From: Promethearchaeota archaeon
GTDB taxonomy: Archaea > Asgardarchaeota > Odinarchaeia > Odinarchaeales > JBHLKK01
Direction of reading: 5' to 3'
DNA: 9,618 nt
Assembly (NCBI GenBank): GCA_048939465.1
Contig: JBHLPL010000073.1
Span: 1-9,618 of the forward strand
In this document: positions 2,119 to 8,689 of the stretch, piece after piece
Numbering within the stretch: the first letter of the stretch is position 1
Layout of the letters: the number at the start of each line of letters is the position of its first letter
Position numbers and translations under genes: made by a program
The notes under the pieces: model-generated
Databases searched by the model: none
Told to the model about the DNA's origin: nothing
Seen by the model: only the letters and a program-made list of their open reading frames with translations

Positions 2119-3111
2119 TCATTTTTCGGAATGGGCAAGATGATTCTTTATTATTTCGAGGGCTTTCGACATGCCCTTCTTCAAATTCTTTGTACCGTTA
2201 CAGCCCGCAGCAGTAGGATGCCCTCCTCCCTCACCACCGATTATCGGACCCACAGGAATCATGACATGCTTTCCAAGATGCAAGCCCGTGCTCTTATACA
2301 CTTTTGTTCTGGACCTTCCACTTATCCGTACTACTTTGTCCTGTTCAGCCCCAACGATGGCTATATCTGCACCGATGTCGATAAGAGCTCTACAAGCGCT
2401 CGCTTCATATGCACTTACTCTAGAGGTTGCAACAATCCAGTCATCAATTCTATGAAGTTTCATCCTTTGGGCAGCTTTGAAACGAGCAGTTCTTTCAGAA
2501 TTATCTAAAGGCGTCTGAAGCATTGAAATAGCTTTAGCATAATTCGCGCCGTGAGCTATTAGCTGAACCACGTTAAGAAACGTATCTTTGCTAGTAATAA
2601 GGAAACGTCGTGAGTCGTAAACCATCGCGGCTAGCAGAGCAAACGCCTCGCTTGAGGTGATTCTTACTCCCGCTTCTCGATATAGACGACAGATTATCTC
2701 CGCAGTTGAATTGCATTTCTCGTCTAATAGCTGAAGAGCGGCTATCTCATGTGCTTGGGGGTGGGGAGTATGGTGATCAATTATTACGATTGGTGCTTCC
2801 AGATTTTCCAGACTTTCTTTCAATGCACCAAGTTGCGCAACATTATTTGTGTCCACCAGAAACACTATGCCAAAGTCTCGTGAAGGAATCTCAGCCTTCA
2901 GATCAATTTTTAGATAATCAGTAAATTTCTTCGAAACCTTATTTTGGCTCTCAGCAACCAGCTCCGTTTTAACCTTTGAAAACTTCTTGCTCAGAAGGTT
3001 CGCAAGTGCAAATGCGCTCAGGACAGCATCGGGATCTGCATTTTGATGACATAAAAGCAACGCGTTTTTTGGCTTTAATTTGTCCAACAGTCTCTTCAGC
3101 TTCTTGAACAC
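2119..3111 (-). CDS. DHH/DHHA1 family phosphoesterase (NrnA-like nanoRNase/pAp phosphatase candidate)
   Basis: Motifs CHQNADPDA (I), LVDTNN (II), IIDHH (III), YDSRRF (IV) and C-terminal GGGHPTAAG (DHHA1). GTG start with GAGGGA 9 nt upstream. Overlaps the upstream gene by 16 nt. Confidence 0.9.
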   Translation of the reverse strand: MFKKLKRLLDKLKPKNALLLCHQNADPDAVLSAFALANLLSKKFSKVKTELVAESQNKVSKKFTDYLKIDLKAEIPSRDFGIVFLVDTNNVAQLGALKESLENLEAPIVIIDHHTPHPQAHEIAALQLLDEKCNSTAEIICRLYREAGVRITSSEAFALLAAMVYDSRRFLITSKDTFLNVVQLIAHGANYAKAISMLQTPLDNSERTARFKAAQRMKLHRIDDWIVATSRVSAYEASACRALIDIGADIAIVGAEQDKVVRISGRSRTKVYKSTGLHLGKHVMIPVGPIIGGEGGGHPTAAGCNGTKNLKKGMSKALEIIKNHLAHSEK

Positions 3112-3407
3112 CGTGTGATTTCCCTCAGTTTTTCTTCTATGGCTCCAAATGCTATATCCACAGCTTCTTGGGCTAGCGAATCACTGTCAAGTCGGCTGAA
3201 AGGAGAGAGTTCAATATTGACCAAGATGTCAATATTCAACTCTTCATCGTATGATGTTTCGATTGTTATGTCGAGTCCTGCTATTTCCCGCTTTGATGTT
3301 CTTTGGTGTATATATTTGCGCGCGGCTGCTTCACTCATCAGACATAGGTGTTCAATCTGTTCGGGAGTCAATTTTGGTAAATTCATTCTTTTGGATTTCA
3401 TTCTCAT
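3096..3407 (-). CDS. DUF3194-like conserved archaeal protein
   Basis: LTPEQIEHLCLMSEAAARKYI...LDITIE...IDILVNIEL...LAQEAVDIAFGAIEEKL pattern, and its usual position right after pfdB. Start moved from the ORF-track position 3467 (inside pfdB) to the ATG at 3407, 4 nt after the pfdB stop; the ATG at 3401 is also possible. Confidence 0.75.
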   Translation of the reverse strand: MRMKSKRMNLPKLTPEQIEHLCLMSEAAARKYIHQRTSKREIAGLDITIETSYDEELNIDILVNIELSPFSRLDSDSLAQEAVDIAFGAIEEKLREITRCSRS

Positions 3408-3411
3408 CTCT

Positions 3412-3777
3412 TCAGGAAGCGCCTGCCCCTCGTCTTTCCAATTTTGCCTGGAGCTTCGTGGTAGCATCCTGAATCTGCTTTCTGAGCTGCTCTTCCTGTC
3501 TCTTTAGGGTCTTCACACGGATTTCCAGAGTCTCTTTCTGATCAGATAGTTCCTTCTTGGTGGGATCTCGATCAACTTTTATCAAAAGAGTTCCTACAGA
3601 CTTATAGACTGTTGTGTCAGCATCTATGTTTTCGAGTTCTGTCAGTGCTCGCTCTGTTTCCCTTAATTGGAGTTCGGATTGATTCCTTTGAGCAGCTATA
3701 AGTTCGTACTGTTGCTGCATTTGTTGAAGACGTAGAATCTCTTGCTGCATTTGAGGTGGTAATTCACCTACGGACAT
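3412..3777 (-). CDS. pfdB: Prefoldin beta subunit
   Basis: ELPPQMQQEILRLQQMQQQ...ELENIDADTTVYKSVGTLLIKVD...LEIRVKTLKRQE: coiled coil, beta-hairpin, coiled coil. SD GAGGT 7 nt before the ATG. Confidence 0.95.
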   Translation of the reverse strand: MSVGELPPQMQQEILRLQQMQQQYELIAAQRNQSELQLRETERALTELENIDADTTVYKSVGTLLIKVDRDPTKKELSDQKETLEIRVKTLKRQEEQLRKQIQDATTKLQAKLERRGAGAS

Positions 3778-3782
3778 TGAAC

Positions 3783-4034
3783 TTACCTCTTTTTCATCAA
3801 ATATAGGTTTTCGATCAGTTTAAACCAACGAAGATATGTATTAACTATAGCCCTCAACGCTGTTACATCTTTGGCTTCAACTCTTAGGTTTAGTGTACGA
3901 CCTCTTTTTATAAGTATTGTTTTTGCTCTGCTGCTCGATGAAGTGGGAAGTTCCGGAAGGACCGCAAGGTAGGCCACCTTAGTGGAATCCTCGTCAGGAA
4001 AAGTAACTTCAATGGCAGCATGTACCTCTGACGT
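3783..4034 (-). CDS. pcc1: KEOPS complex subunit Pcc1 (apparent ACG start)
   Basis: The C-terminal LRVEAKDVTALRAIVNTYLRW is the Pcc1 signature. The frame extends upstream of the ORF-track GTG (3977) as (T)SEVHAAIEVTFPDEDSTKVAYLAVLPE, which matches the Pcc1 N-terminal strand and helix. It is bounded by TAA at 4037-4035, and the first codon is ACG (4034-4032), giving 83 aa. The gene call is strong; the start is inferred. Confidence 0.85.
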   Translation of the reverse strand, partial: TSEVHAAIEVTFPDEDSTKVAYLAVLPELPTSSSSRAKTILIKRGRTLNLRVEAKDVTALRAIVNTYLRWFKLIENLYLMKKR

Positions 4035-4037
4035 TTA

Positions 4038-4604
4038 CTACTCCCCCTCTTTAGTGTCGGCTACCCTCCTAGCGCACAGAACGGGTCCCAGTTCCTGCAG
4101 AGTAGGAATCTCGATAAATTCGAGAATTGCAGGATAGTTGTGAGATTTACTAATAAAAAGCGCAATATTCCCGCTTTCTGAAAGACCAGGTCTTAGTTTA
4201 CCAGGATAAACTGAAGAGTTGAGGTGGTTGGCTAGCTGGTTGGCCAATTTCCCAATTGTGGATGTTGTCTGATGTTCATGGGTTATCACCAATTTTGGTC
4301 TGGCCGGAGCCCGACGCTTCTCAATCTCTCTTCTGAGAACAACCTTACCCAGCAGTAGTTCGGGAGGTACAAAATTGTAACCTTTCGAGGTTACAGACAG
4401 AAAGGACACTTTACTAGGATTACCCCTAAAAGTATCAATGACAATAGCGATCCTGGAATCCAATTCAATCGTTTTTAAGGCGAGCTCGTACATGCTCATC
4501 TTCCCGCGACTGACTCGTATGGCATCTGGAATTACTCGAGCAAGATCATTACATAGAGTCCTTGTGCGTCTCGCTGGACGGTGGGATGTTGTAATCAGAG
4601 GCAC
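4038..4604 (-). CDS. Brix/Imp4-domain ribosome biogenesis protein
   Basis: N-terminal LITTSHRPARRTRTLCNDLARVIP...RGKMS and C-terminal ELGP motif, in the conserved position between rpl37ae and pcc1. GTG start; ends in tandem TAG TAA. Confidence 0.88.
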   Translation of the reverse strand: MPLITTSHRPARRTRTLCNDLARVIPDAIRVSRGKMSMYELALKTIELDSRIAIVIDTFRGNPSKVSFLSVTSKGYNFVPPELLLGKVVLRREIEKRRAPARPKLVITHEHQTTSTIGKLANQLANHLNSSVYPGKLRPGLSESGNIALFISKSHNYPAILEFIEIPTLQELGPVLCARRVADTKEGE

Positions 4605-4623: not shown

Positions 4624-4902
4624 TTATTCGGTTTCCGCCTTTTCTTGCATTCTCTTCCCCATACGGGCAGCCATTTTTCCAGCATCAGTTTGGGGTATCC
4701 AGGCCCCTCCTGCGAATGAAAATCCACACTTTTTGCATATCCATATACCTACGCTTGCTCGACGGAGGGCTTTCGTTTTGCATTGAGGACAAGCGTAGGG
4801 AGCCTTAAGCTTTTTCTCGATGGTATGTACTCTCTTCCTTAGGGTCGAGCCGTATCTTACACCAAATCTGGCAGTAGAACCTGTTTTCTTCGTTCGTCCC
4901 AA
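4624..4902 (-). CDS. rpl37ae: 50S ribosomal protein L37ae (eL43)
   Basis: GRTKKTGSTARFGVRYGSTLRKRV and the C4 zinc finger CPQC...WICKKC. The TTG at 4902 is preferred as start because SD GAGGGTG lies 6 nt upstream and homologues begin M-G/A-R-T-K-K. The ATG at 4926 (ATGA overlap with rrp42) is the alternative. Confidence 0.95.
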   Translation of the reverse strand: MGRTKKTGSTARFGVRYGSTLRKRVHTIEKKLKAPYACPQCKTKALRRASVGIWICKKCGFSFAGGAWIPQTDAGKMAARMGKRMQEKAETE

Positions 4903-4922
4903 TATTTTCACCCTCTGAGATC

Positions 4923-5729
4923 TCATCTTTTGGGCAGCTTTTTTGATAGTTCTTTGGCCTTTTTGACCCCAATCTCAATAGCATTTATGGCATCTTCATA
5001 AGGTAAGGCCCCAGTCCCACCTTTTTGGATGGAAGTTACATTCCCATCTTTGTCCACTGAGATCGTGATTCTCCCGTCCATAATGAGTTCCTCCTTCAAG
5101 ATGGGATCTACAGCGAATAAGTTGTTAATTCTAGCCATAGTAATCGATACGACTTCGTTCTCGATCGGAAGAGGTTCTGATTCGTCTAATACTGTTACTT
5201 CGTCTCCATCGACCTTCACTTTTGGAATTCTGGCCGTTAACAGTGCAGACACAGCTGCCAAGGTGGAAGCATCAAATAGATTTCCGTCATAGTCCAAAGC
5301 GTAGACATCGACAAATATAATCCAGACCTTCTCTCCGGGGATTATGCATAGTTTTTCTTTGTTAACAATCTCGGCATGTCTTATCCCTCGATCAACAACG
5401 CGTGCAACTTCGATGGAATTCTCGTCAGGAGGGCCGAATTCAAACATTGGAGAAGCAAGTGGGGTCAATTCTGCATTGACCGTGACGACCCCGCTGTCGG
5501 GCGTGTCGGAATACGGCGATCCAATGTCTACCTTCACTCCCGCAACAACCTGAGTTTTACCCAATGTGACTCTTGCGGAGCCCTCAGCCTTTTCAACAAC
5601 ACCGGTTTCGATAGTGATTTCACGATAATCTTCAATTGAACGTCCATCTATTCTTTTTCCTTTGGCAAGTTCAGAGAGAATTCTTTTCTTCTCGATTTCT
5701 GAGACGATTCTGTACAGATTCTCGCTCAT
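4923..5729 (-). CDS. rrp42: Exosome complex RNase PH-like subunit Rrp42
   Basis: GKRIDGRSIEDYR...GSARVTLGKTQVVAGVK...PYSDTPDSG...ARVVDRGIR...DYDGNLFDA...IQKGG. SD GGAGG; ATGA overlap with rrp41. Confidence 0.96.
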   Translation of the reverse strand: MSENLYRIVSEIEKKRILSELAKGKRIDGRSIEDYREITIETGVVEKAEGSARVTLGKTQVVAGVKVDIGSPYSDTPDSGVVTVNAELTPLASPMFEFGPPDENSIEVARVVDRGIRHAEIVNKEKLCIIPGEKVWIIFVDVYALDYDGNLFDASTLAAVSALLTARIPKVKVDGDEVTVLDESEPLPIENEVVSITMARINNLFAVDPILKEELIMDGRITISVDKDGNVTSIQKGGTGALPYEDAINAIEIGVKKAKELSKKLPKR

Positions 5730-6508
5730 TTCGAATCTCCTCCAGTTTTTCCATTGTCATCTTCTGCAACTCTCTCCCGAATCTGAGTGTATCTTCTCCT
5801 CAGTGCGTCTCTCTGTAATTCATAGATTTCGTTTATACCTTTTGTCGCCATCTTTAGCCCCTCTTTGAGTTCTTCGACTGTTAATTGGCCGTCCATCTGA
5901 AAGAGGGTTATTTCCTTTTTACGAGGCATCATGGCGATAGGTACGTCAGCCTCTCCATATTTGTCTTCAGAGTCGCTCAAGTCAAGTATCATTTGTCCGT
6001 CTGCTTTACCTATAGCAACAGCAGACGTTAGATCTCTTAGAGGAATCCCTGCATCAGCTAGAGCCAAAGATGCACAGTTGATTGATGTGCAGCGTGTTCC
6101 TCCGTCAGCTTCCAAAACCTCGACGAAAACGTCAACAACAGTTCTTGGATATTGCTCTAGGAATGTCGAGGGCAGTAGAGCGTTAGATAGAACCATGGAG
6201 AGTTCAATTTCGCGTCTGCTTGGCGCCGGACTTTTTCTCTCAGAAACGGAGAAGGGCGTCATTCGGTATATACATCTTAAAACTGCCCTATCGGGCAGAG
6301 CAAGGTGTCTGGGGTGGATCTCTCGTGGACCATAAACAGCAACTAATATCTTATTCTTTCCTTGTTCCGTATAGGCAGAGCCATTAGCCTGCCATAAAAT
6401 CCCCACTTCAACCTTTATTGGACGCAGTTCATCTGCCTTCCTTCCATCTATCCTTATACCTTTCTTGTCAACCAGTGTCTCCGGTTGACTATTCCTTTTC
6501 AATGTCAT
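5726..6508 (-). CDS. rrp41: Exosome complex phosphorolytic exoribonuclease Rrp41
   Basis: RIDGRKADELRP, GSAY, VYGPRE, PSRRE, ADGGTR (phosphate-binding) and EDKYGEAD (catalytic Asp region) are all intact. SD GAGGT; ATGA overlap with rrp4. Confidence 0.97.
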   Translation of the reverse strand: MTLKRNSQPETLVDKKGIRIDGRKADELRPIKVEVGILWQANGSAYTEQGKNKILVAVYGPREIHPRHLALPDRAVLRCIYRMTPFSVSERKSPAPSRREIELSMVLSNALLPSTFLEQYPRTVVDVFVEVLEADGGTRCTSINCASLALADAGIPLRDLTSAVAIGKADGQMILDLSDSEDKYGEADVPIAMMPRKKEITLFQMDGQLTVEELKEGLKMATKGINEIYELQRDALRRRYTQIRERVAEDDNGKTGGDSK

Positions 6509-7191
6509 TTTTCGCTACCTCTTTTTCCTTCTATTATTCTCTTTATACGGTCCGTAAGACCGGACGTATGAGATTCTCGTTCAATCAATCGAACGATCTG
6601 AATGAAAAGTTTCGCATCAGCTGGCTTACTACTAGAAAACCATACCAAGCCATTTTGTCCGATTTTTACTCTCTGACCTAGCTGATCTTTTATCATTTTG
6701 ATCATGGAGCCCCGGCGTCCAATCAGACGAGGGACTTTTGGGGGGGACATTTTTATGATTTGGCCACCGTGAAGCTTTCCTAGTCCTTCATTTCTTATTG
6801 TTATTGTGGGGTCACGGCTTCTGTCGAATGAAATTACTTCTCCGACTACGAAGTCACCCACCTTGAATTCCGTTCTGATGGGTTCTCTCATGCTCCTACC
6901 GCGAGGCCGTTCTATCGGAAGTTTTCCGAGATAAGGCGAATTTATGTCAAGCCTTATGCTTACGGGAGAAAGGGAAACAATCTTCCCCAGCACAATATCT
7001 CCCACTTTTGGGTAATAGAAGCCTTCTAGTGGAACTACATATACTGTGTTTCCCCTTATCTCAGCAAGACCAACTGCTGAGGCGAATATCTTCCCATTTT
7101 CTTTGAATGCCCCTTCGCCTGCTCGAAAGCTGTTTTCAGACAGCAGTTCGCCAGGGACAACTATTTGATGTTTCTCAAAATGAACAGACAA
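6505..7191 (-). CDS. rrp4: Exosome RNA-binding cap subunit Rrp4 (S1 + KH)
   Basis: IVVPGELL, YYPKVGDIVLGKI (S1), KVPRLIGRRGSMI (KH GxxG) and HTSGLTDRI. The TTG at 7191 is preferred (GGAGG 7 nt upstream); the ATG at 7209 is the alternative. Confidence 0.95.
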   Translation of the reverse strand: MSVHFEKHQIVVPGELLSENSFRAGEGAFKENGKIFASAVGLAEIRGNTVYVVPLEGFYYPKVGDIVLGKIVSLSPVSIRLDINSPYLGKLPIERPRGRSMREPIRTEFKVGDFVVGEVISFDRSRDPTITIRNEGLGKLHGGQIIKMSPPKVPRLIGRRGSMIKMIKDQLGQRVKIGQNGLVWFSSSKPADAKLFIQIVRLIERESHTSGLTDRIKRIIEGKRGSEK

Positions 7192-7210
7192 TAAAGAGCC
7201 TCCTTTCATA

Positions 7211-7930
7211 CTAGGTTTTGCGTTTTATCTGCGCACTTCCCTTAGTAAGCTTACTTAGAGTATCTACAAAGGTGTTATAGAGACCTGCCGATACTTCGAC
7301 TGTGCCCGTCCATGAGCCATCTCTCATCCATTCTTCTTTGGAGACACTTCCTAATCGGGAAATGGCATTATATGCCTTGCCAGAATGTATGGCAGGAATA
7401 CGAACCTCCAGCTCTATTTGCTCCATCCGTATGGGGAGGATGGGTTGCAAATCCCTAATTATATCTTTGGCTTGTTCCTCTGGATTCCTAAACGGGTCGA
7501 TGGGGACCTTTGCTTCTTCAATTGCTCGCTCTATACGCTGAGGGGGGTGTGGTAATCTTGTCTGGGGGTTTATGCTATTCCGAGCTAGTATTGTTACTAT
7601 CCGCTTCTTTTTAGCTTCGACCATTTTGCTCCTTTGCTCAGAAGTTAGTTGCAGTTCGCCCCTTCGTAGTATCTCCTCAGCCACCTTCAAAAGATCGGAA
7701 GTGCCAAAGACCTCTTCCAGCTTCTCTGGCGAAGCTTTCTTGCCCTTTTTGGCATTCTCAAACACCATGTATCCTTTTAGAATTTCTGGTAGCTCAACCG
7801 ATTTACCGCTTCGAAAATCATATGCCCCCTCGGGTTCGACGAGTATTTCAAATCTTTCACCGTGGAATTCGAAGCGAGCGATTATCGTATTTTCGAATTC
7901 TACCCACTTATCACCCCTTATGCCAGCCAT
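7211..7930 (-). CDS. sdo1: Ribosome maturation factor SBDS/Sdo1
   Basis: ARFEFHGERFEILV...KGKKAS...FGT...GELQLTSEQR...INPQTRLPHPPQRIERAIEEAK...LPIRME...EEWMRDGSW. Confidence 0.96.
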   Translation of the reverse strand: MAGIRGDKWVEFENTIIARFEFHGERFEILVEPEGAYDFRSGKSVELPEILKGYMVFENAKKGKKASPEKLEEVFGTSDLLKVAEEILRRGELQLTSEQRSKMVEAKKKRIVTILARNSINPQTRLPHPPQRIERAIEEAKVPIDPFRNPEEQAKDIIRDLQPILPIRMEQIELEVRIPAIHSGKAYNAISRLGSVSKEEWMRDGSWTGTVEVSAGLYNTFVDTLSKLTKGSAQIKRKT

Positions 7931-7972: not shown

Positions 7973-8689
7973 CTAGGCAAGTTTCTCAATGTAGGTCTGC
8001 ACAGTGTCGGCGGAAAGCTTGTCAAACTTCCGTTCATCCGCGCGTACAACAGCAATCTCGACCTTGGTTGAGTCGAGTTTTCCCTCAATTACTTGTTTCA
8101 GTGCGTTTAACGAAAGCATAACACAATCATCGAGCTTTAGAGTATCACTATATTCCTTTTCCAAGAACTCCCTTACTGCCTGTGCACCTGCTCCAATAGC
8201 TTGTGCCTTATAGCTCCAGTAAGCTCCACTTGGATCTGTCATAAAGAGTTTTGATCCGTTATCATCTGCACCGGCAATGAGTAAGCTCACGCCGAAAGGG
8301 CGAACACCTGCATGTTGAGTATACAACTGTTTTAGATCACATACTTTCTTTGTCAGTGTGTCTACGGTAATCGCTTCATCATACGTTAACCTGTTTACCT
8401 GAGCTTCGATTCGTGCCTGGTTTATTAGTACTCTCGCGTCTGCGGTTAGTCCGGCAATTGCAGCGCCTGTGTGTTGATCAACAAAGAATATCTTTTCTAC
8501 GCTTTCCGGCTCTTGCAGCGAAAGGATTTTCTTCTCGACAGCCAATACTACGCCTTCTTCACATCTTATTCCAACAGCGGTGGTACCGCGTCTGACGGCT
8601 TCAAGAGCATATTCTACCTGGAATAATCTTCCGTCCGGACTGAATATAGTGATTGCACGGTCATATCCTAGCCCTGGAGGAGCAAACAT
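7973..8689 (-). CDS. psmA: 20S proteasome alpha subunit
   Basis: GYDRAITIFSPDGRLFQVEYALEAV signature, GLTADARVL, YTQHAGVRPFGVSLLIAG, TDPSG, AIGAG. SD GGAGGTG (8701-8695) 5 nt before the ATG. Confidence 0.98.
   Translation of the reverse strand: MFAPPGLGYDRAITIFSPDGRLFQVEYALEAVRRGTTAVGIRCEEGVVLAVEKKILSLQEPESVEKIFFVDQHTGAAIAGLTADARVLINQARIEAQVNRLTYDEAITVDTLTKKVCDLKQLYTQHAGVRPFGVSLLIAGADDNGSKLFMTDPSGAYWSYKAQAIGAGAQAVREFLEKEYSDTLKLDDCVMLSLNALKQVIEGKLDSTKVEIAVVRADERKFDKLSADTVQTYIEKLA

Follow-up and report, generated by a model that had tools for sequence, protein, structure and literature searches.

Probable Shine-Dalgarno-led initiation of the KEOPS gene pcc1 at a conserved ACG codon in an Asgard archaeal class

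Positions 1 to 9,618 of contig JBHLPL010000073.1 of an uncultured Promethearchaeota archaeon (assembly GCA_048939465.1), a stretch of 9,618 nucleotides (nt) referred to below as the window, carry on the minus strand an archaeal exosome/proteasome superoperon in which pcc1, a short, essential gene for tRNA modification predicted to encode a subunit of the KEOPS complex, lies between a Brix-like gene and the gene for prefoldin beta (Table 1). At the junction in question the minus strand reads GAGGGGGAG TAG TAA ACG TCA GAG GTA CAT GCT GCC ATT GAA GTT; the Brix-like gene and pcc1 are in one frame, and the stops TAG (4040-4038) and TAA (4037-4035) stand between them. A first-pass annotation of the window had proposed that pcc1 is initiated at this ACG, directly after the tandem stops and 6 nt behind a Shine-Dalgarno (SD) motif. 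The features on which it relied are all present in the sequence: the ACG lies at 4034-4032 with that spacing, the in-frame TAA closes off any 5' extension, and no ATG, GTG or TTG occurs in the frame before codon 20. The canonical in-frame codons of the gene are GTG at codon 20 (3977-3975), TTG at codons 60 and 79 and ATG at codon 80. A comparison across the class adds strength to the proposal, and we consider it likely that pcc1 starts by SD-led near-cognate initiation at the ACG.

The frame opened by the ACG has the normal size of a Pcc1, as the first-pass annotation had held. It matched Pfam PF09341 over residues 6-76 (E=4.9e-14, 53 bits, cut-off 20.9) and NCBIfam NF011470 with 51.7 bits (cut-off 27), as well as NF040853 under the cut-off. 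The top match in the PDB was a tandem Pcc1 chain, 8UP5 (E=3.6e-23), and 8UNK and 7A67 (both E=1e-10) and 3ENC (E=2.5e-10) were also retrieved. The residues ahead of the GTG had been taken for the N-terminal strand of Pcc1, and alignments and structures bear this out: the N-terminal residues match the family models from position 2 of these models onward, residue 3 pairs with residue 5 of the solved Pyrococcus chains, and residues 4-11, which form beta-1, align to residues 6-13 of those chains. An AlphaFold2 model of the 83-residue protein, a prediction made from a seven-sequence alignment, places strands at residues 4-11, 37-44 and 47-54, with helices at residues 15-28 and 57-82 (mean predicted local distance difference test score 81.5), giving the beta-alpha-beta-beta-alpha order of the Pcc1 fold, N-terminal strand included. 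This frame is the sole match to the Pcc1 family in the assembly. The assembly also contains further genes of the threonylcarbamoyladenosine (t6A) pathway, all with canonical starts: cgi121, sua5 and, in two pieces, kae1.

The class was sampled with seven species genomes from two families: that of the window (G000, an assembly of 1.96 Mb, 91% complete), two sister species of the same genus (G001 and G002) and four members of the Odinarchaeum family (G003-G006); the class is that of Candidatus (Ca.) Odinarchaeum yellowstonii. ACG heads the pcc1 frame in all of them, always 4-7 nt behind an SD motif, and four of the seven (G000, G001, G002 and G004) are without a canonical codon able to give a folded Pcc1. 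The first such codon in frame is the GTG at codon 20 in G000 and an ATG at codon 63 in G004, and the only one in G001 and G002 is a TTG at codon 59. Three Odinarchaeum genomes have an in-frame GTG or TTG 2-3 codons before the ACG. Because this codon lies inside or against the SD, a GTG near the SD of G004 meets a TAA stop after one further codon, and the corresponding codon of G006 is out of frame, it appears to behave as part of the ribosome-binding site and not as a conserved start.

The ACG is conserved beyond coding constraint. Where residues are identical, four-fold codons agree at 8/18 and 9/17 positions between G000 and its two sisters, and at 1-3 of 5-7 between the families, which share ~30% identity in Pcc1. 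Among the other threonine codons of the seven pcc1 genes ACG was used in 2 of 49, and its share of threonine codons genome-wide is 17.7%. The residues that follow the ACG diverge (TS-EVH, TR-GVY, TDYPIC). As a control, the threonine codon just after the start of a PIN-like gene varies within the genus (ACG, ACA, ACA). Contigs from other sequencing studies of mangrove and sediment metagenomes repeat the junction, one with no differences and one differing only at 3897. In two strains at a greater distance none of the listed differences falls at 4032-4034; with 17 others unlisted, this is no proof of ACG in them. The first-pass annotation had allowed for a sequencing error or a strain variant. 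Because seven species keep the codon, the sequences compared indicate that it is neither. Scanning genome contigs with Pcc1 for more relatives returned none, and a scan of metagenomes found one distant locus, with an ATG start. Asgard pcc1 genes sampled from outside the class mostly have ATG, GTG or TTG starts.

The geometry of the site is that of an ordinary start in this genome. Among 5-mers, GGGGG, GGGGA, AGGGG and GGAGG show the strongest enrichment ahead of canonical starts in G000, and the distance from SD to start is most often 6 nt (n=68), followed by 7 (n=52), 8 (n=37), 9 (n=32), 10 (n=9) and 11 nt (n=9); the spacing of 6 nt at the ACG is thus the modal one. The Odinarchaeum family has AGGTGGT 4-5 nt ahead of the ACG. 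No 16S rRNA was found in the G000 assembly; in the sister genus the 16S 3' end reads ...GGAUCACCUCCU. RNA structure around the pcc1 start was nothing unusual (z=-0.79).

In the mechanism that we propose, GAGGGGGAG, six bases upstream, would position the 30S subunit at the ACG. The subunit could be delivered by direct binding to the polycistronic mRNA of the exosome superoperon, or could come from a ribosome fresh from termination on the Brix-like gene; the stop of that gene is 0-3 nt from the ACG in the genus and 10 nt from it in Odinarchaeum. Re-initiation of this kind is compatible with initiation at ACG, as it concerns how the ribosome arrives and puts forward no rival codon. The initiator Met-tRNA would then read ACG despite a single mismatch at its middle base, and the product would be the full 83-residue Pcc1, presumably Met-initiated and made at a low rate. 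We infer that ACG is used rather than ATT, that methionine is inserted and that output is low. In line with a low output, aIF1 of Sulfolobus, an initiation factor, discriminates against non-canonical codons (PMC6237735, PMC4705826).

Several points weigh against initiation at the ACG. The codon is missing from the start codons of NCBI translation table 11, and in Escherichia coli reporters it belongs to a class with 0.1-1% of the output of AUG, with methionine at the N-terminus (bioRxiv 10.1101/063800). No initiator tRNA was recognised among the 24 tRNA-model hits in the incomplete G000 assembly, and no RNA run holding the pcc1 locus was present among the sequencing runs searched. The seven genomes are, moreover, related, and amount to ~4 effectively independent lineages. 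A fourth related protein (P0005, from a sediment run, 82% identical) begins MYADIEV, its annotated start being a canonical codon in the place of codon 4. To these must be added the case for a start at ATT.

Translation from the ATT at 4013-4011 (codon 8) would yield a 76-residue Pcc1 and leave the ACG and the next six codons as an untranslated spacer. It is the main rival and the first-pass annotation, whose ACG start is otherwise upheld, had left it unweighed. Unlike ACG, ATT is a table-11 start; the public record of the window pcc1 reads it as M and gives a 76-residue protein beginning MEVTFPD, 7 residues shorter than the ACG form; both sister species are annotated alike; and the codon is retained in all three species of the genus. 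An SD-like GAGGT or GAGGAG lies 10-11 nt upstream of it in G000 and G001, and uS2 of the same genus uses ATT or ATC. Spacings of 10-11 nt are rare, however (9 genes each vs 68 at 6 nt), no SD-like motif precedes the ATT of G002 (CCAAGAGTA), and the Odinarchaeum family has TTA or CTA, neither able to start, as its homologous codon. The presence of ATT is itself uninformative, since every isoleucine codon is near-cognate and isoleucine is expected in a beta-strand anyway. A start at ATT would also drop residues 4-7, half of beta-1 and matched in both the family models and the solved structures, and it leaves the class-wide nucleotide conservation of the ACG unexplained. The call of P0005, too, appears to put the N-terminus upstream of the ATT. 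We therefore regard the ATT as the weaker candidate and its use as unlikely.

Much less probable still is the absence of any independent start, whether through readthrough or frameshifting from the Brix-like gene, use of the out-of-frame ATG at 4021-4019, a truncated Pcc1 from the GTG at 3977, or decay of the gene. The Brix-like gene and pcc1 do share a frame in the genus, only one or two stops apart, and the out-of-frame ATG, at the boundary of codons 5 and 6, is found in 3/3 of its species. A readthrough fusion was nevertheless rejected, as pcc1 is preceded by two consecutive stops in the window and, in the Odinarchaeum family, by a gene in a different frame. The out-of-frame ATG followed by a frameshift was rejected on its SD spacing of only 2-3 nt and on the closure of its frame after 5 codons in G001; the RNA structure at the junction, as noted, is ordinary. 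A protein begun at the GTG would lack beta-1 together with the first third of helix 1, and this codon is missing in the sister species. Conservation at the protein level extends over the whole frame, codons 2-19 included, and pcc1 occurs in a single copy. As for a C-to-U edit of the mRNA that turns ACG into AUG and makes initiation canonical, it would account for the strict conservation of the ACG, and such start codons are edited to AUG in plant organelles and tRNA C-to-U editing exists in one archaeon, but we know of no mRNA C-to-U editing in archaea, and the genus's starts at CTG and ATT/ATC would go unexplained; we consider this explanation very improbable. A DYW-deaminase search gave no match, but it gave none in any control genome either and so carries no information.

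The ACG of pcc1 does not seem to stand alone. While the first-pass case for this gene held, its treatment as a peculiarity of pcc1 did not, as putative CTG, ATT/ATC and ACG starts occur at other housekeeping genes of the genus. We scanned the genome for an SD 5-mer followed at 4-9 nt by a codon that had an in-frame stop no more than 12 codons upstream and no canonical start within 15 codons downstream. Besides pcc1, the matches included enolase, uS2, PurM, NuoC, CysK, FwdB, TFB and others. For open reading frames (ORFs) of at least 150 codons, near-cognates made up 26% of the non-canonical hits at 4-9 nt spacing vs 13% at 12-23 nt, and ACG and CTG together were found eight times at the right spacing vs 0-1 at control spacings. 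Over all ORFs of at least 80 codons ACG was not enriched, its 8 hits being at background level; enrichment showed only in the long ORFs when set against the control spacings. Six of the genes were followed in relatives (enolase, uS2, PurM, the PIN-like gene, a 110-residue protein gene and CysK; Table 1); their near-cognate codons lie 6-9 nt from an SD and no canonical start is available. Orthologues of five of these occur in the Odinarchaeum family, all with canonical starts, and only the ACG of pcc1 is kept class-wide. On these counts pcc1 would be one of roughly one to two dozen near-cognate-start genes in G000. The aIF1 gene of G000 itself has an ATG start. Right before the ACG of CysK (contig C84, ~5560-5580) the sequence GATGAAAAACG, identical in G000 and G001, contains an out-of-frame ATG and then a run of five A; a +1 slip on AAAAA from this ATG into the CysK frame is unlikely because hardly any spacing separates the ATG from an SD.

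The pcc1 codon is one C-to-T change away from ATG, and none of the ~4 independent lineages has fixed that change, which suggests that a weak codon is tolerated or favoured at this gene. It is plausible, as the first-pass annotation had suggested in proposing a limited dose, that a weak start holds a small KEOPS subunit low inside a highly expressed operon. This would be only one possible reason, since the genus has such starts at several housekeeping genes. A more speculative idea comes from yeast, where loss of t6A nearly doubles non-AUG initiation and raises the number of genes with ACG starts from 98 to 169 (PMC4717488); by analogy, an ACG-started KEOPS subunit could rise as t6A falls. The codon might then act as a homeostatic sensor, with lower t6A37 on the initiator tRNA (or lower start fidelity) giving more Pcc1 and KEOPS until t6A is restored. 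The presence of t6A on archaeal initiator tRNA has been called unclear (PMC4705826), and we think such a loop improbable. If true, it would be an archaeal analogue of the infC AUU/IF3 loop and would explain why ACG is class-wide in pcc1 when the sister family has canonical codons at the other genes with near-cognate starts.

Starts of this kind bear on annotation. A gene caller restricted to ATG, GTG and TTG would give a Pcc1 of 64 residues for G000 and nothing in the two sister species. The pcc1 of O. yellowstonii LCB4 has been called as 88 residues, from the GTG inside the SD, and that of G004 was probably never called by gene finders, because no matching protein was found in the protein collection. 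Asgard proteomes used in studies of eukaryogenesis would be consistently truncated at genes of this sort. In eukaryotes, regulation through ACG and CUG starts is known. If the proposed start is true, natural and conserved ACG initiation exists in a prokaryote that uses SD motifs, outside the table-11 list, and the pcc1 leader, with its short gene, single codon and strong SD, would be a clean test case for the start-codon stringency of archaeal initiation factors.

The remaining genes of the superoperon and the other candidates of the scan are listed in Table 1. The Brix-like protein matched NCBIfam PRK03972, 'ribosomal biogenesis protein', with E=1e-22, under the curated cut-off, and its C-terminal ELGP motif is common to relatives. 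The DUF3194 ORF as listed overlaps the end of the prefoldin beta gene by 56 nt (3412-3467); its true start is probably farther inside, as the Pfam match begins only at residue 30. In the t6A pathway, kae1 is split on contig C69 (minus strand, ~30126-30153): the frame runs to ...AFSQGPGL, is broken by 25 nt, AAACTCTGCCAACAGTTTGCTGAAA, and resumes with GPCLRTAAVAARALA. The interruption may be a small mRNA intron of the tRNA (bulge-helix-bulge) type, here in a second t6A gene. The 24 tRNA-model hits of G000 are mostly 90-140 nt long, and tRNA introns therefore appear to be very common in this genome. The two other metagenome-assembled genomes of the genus are labelled 'Candidatus Hodarchaeota archaeon' and 'Promethearchaeota archaeon' at NCBI, and genome-based kinship places them in the class and order of Ca. 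Odinarchaeum yellowstonii; the lineage of the window seems to be a mesophilic sister family of Odinarchaeum that lives in sediments.

Table 1. Coordinates of the features discussed, by window position or by G000 contig, and the pcc1 junctions of the related genomes.
Feature	Source	Positions	Strand	Remarks
psmA	window	7973-8689	minus	
SBDS	window	7211-7930	minus	
rrp4	window	6505-7209	minus	
rrp41	window	5726-6508	minus	
rrp42	window	4923-5729	minus	
rpl37ae	window	4624-4926	minus	
Brix/Imp4-like ribosome-biogenesis gene	window	4038-4604	minus	188 aa; GTG start; TAG stop 4040-4038
SD motif GAGGGGGAG	window	4041-4049	minus	6 nt ahead of ACG
In-frame TAA right before ACG	window	4035-4037	minus	bars 5' extension of pcc1 frame
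Proposed pcc1 start ACG	window	4032-4034	minus	codon identical in 7/7 class genomes
Proposed pcc1 coding sequence	window	3786-4034	minus	83 codons; stop TAA 3785-3783
Rival start ATT, codon 8	window	4011-4013	minus	used by public record
First canonical in-frame start GTG, codon 20	window	3975-3977	minus	rejected as start
Prefoldin beta	window	3412-3777	minus	ATG start, own SD; Pfam PF01920, E=3.2e-24
DUF3194 ORF	window	3096-3467	minus	
DHH phosphoesterase	window	2119-3111	minus	
pcc1 junction	G001			GAGGAGGAG TAA GAC ACG
pcc1 junction	G002			GAGGAGGAT TAA GAC ACG
pcc1 junction	G004			AAGGTGGTT TAA ACG
pcc1 junction	G006			AAGGTGGTTGAAA ACG
pcc1 junction	G003			AAGGTGGTTGAC ACG
pcc1 junction	G005			AAGGTGGTTGAA ACG
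Enolase	G000 C113	8718-10013	minus	CTG in 3/3 of genus; ATG in Odinarchaeum family
uS2	G000 C69	12838-13473	plus	ATT (ATC in sisters) in 3/3, 6 nt after GGAGGTGA; GTG/TTG in Odinarchaeum family
PurM	G000 C35	17758-18831	plus	CTG in 2/2 (preceding ACG is GCG in G001); ATG in Odinarchaeum family
PIN-like gene	G000 C77	30609-31127	plus	CTG in 3/3; TTG/ATG in Odinarchaeum family
110-aa gene	G000 C131	9008-9343	minus	CTG in G000, TTG in both sisters; not found in Odinarchaeum family
CysK	G000 C84	5574-6506	plus	ACG in 2/2, 6 nt after CAGGGAG; GTG/ATG in Odinarchaeum family
NuoC-like	G000 C71	9417-9890	minus	candidate ACG start; no orthologue found in relatives
FwdB-like	G000 C16	20692-21987	minus	candidate CTG start
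TFB	G000 C31	12851-13780	minus	candidate CTG or AGG start
MFS transporter	G000 C119	9791-11023	plus	candidate ATT start

SD-led near-cognate starts are known from bacteria, as in the AUU of E. coli infC and pcnB, and AUU, AUC, AUA and CUG are alternate starts in table 11. The pcc1 site resembles these in its single-mismatch codon, its normal SD spacing and its place at a conserved housekeeping gene, and would also resemble them in weak output and in being read by the initiator tRNA. The weak codon of infC serves as a sensor of a fidelity factor (PMC4705826). Unlike infC and pcnB, pcc1 has ACG, with the mismatch in the middle position and off the table-11 list, and its host is an archaeon with initiation of the aIF1/aIF2 type. 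Eukaryotic and viral ACG initiation, of which yeast ALA1 is an example (PMC4717488), offers the other parallel: Met-tRNAi is proposed here, too, to read ACG as a low-efficiency start, and the host is a member of the archaeal group nearest to eukaryotes. However, eukaryotic ACG starts rely on scanning and on the Kozak context, and they usually yield an N-terminally extended version of a protein also made from an AUG, whereas the pcc1 site would be chosen by the SD within an operon and the ACG is proposed as the sole start of the sole product. Pcc1 of Pyrococcus furiosus and P. abyssi (3ENC, 7A67, 8UNK) agrees with the protein described here in family, size, fold order and place in the exosome superoperon before prefoldin beta, but pcc1 has a canonical start (ATG, GTG or TTG) there. 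In the full-text literature searched, which covered few subscription journals, no report was found of near-cognate or ACG starts in Asgard archaea, or of the start of pcc1. In Haloferax, ~30% of putative alternative initiation sites fell at near-cognate codons and were set aside by the authors (PMC7261190). Near-cognate initiation as such is thus known; what would be new, as far as the genomes compared here indicate, is an SD-led ACG as the sole start of a conserved gene across an Asgard class.

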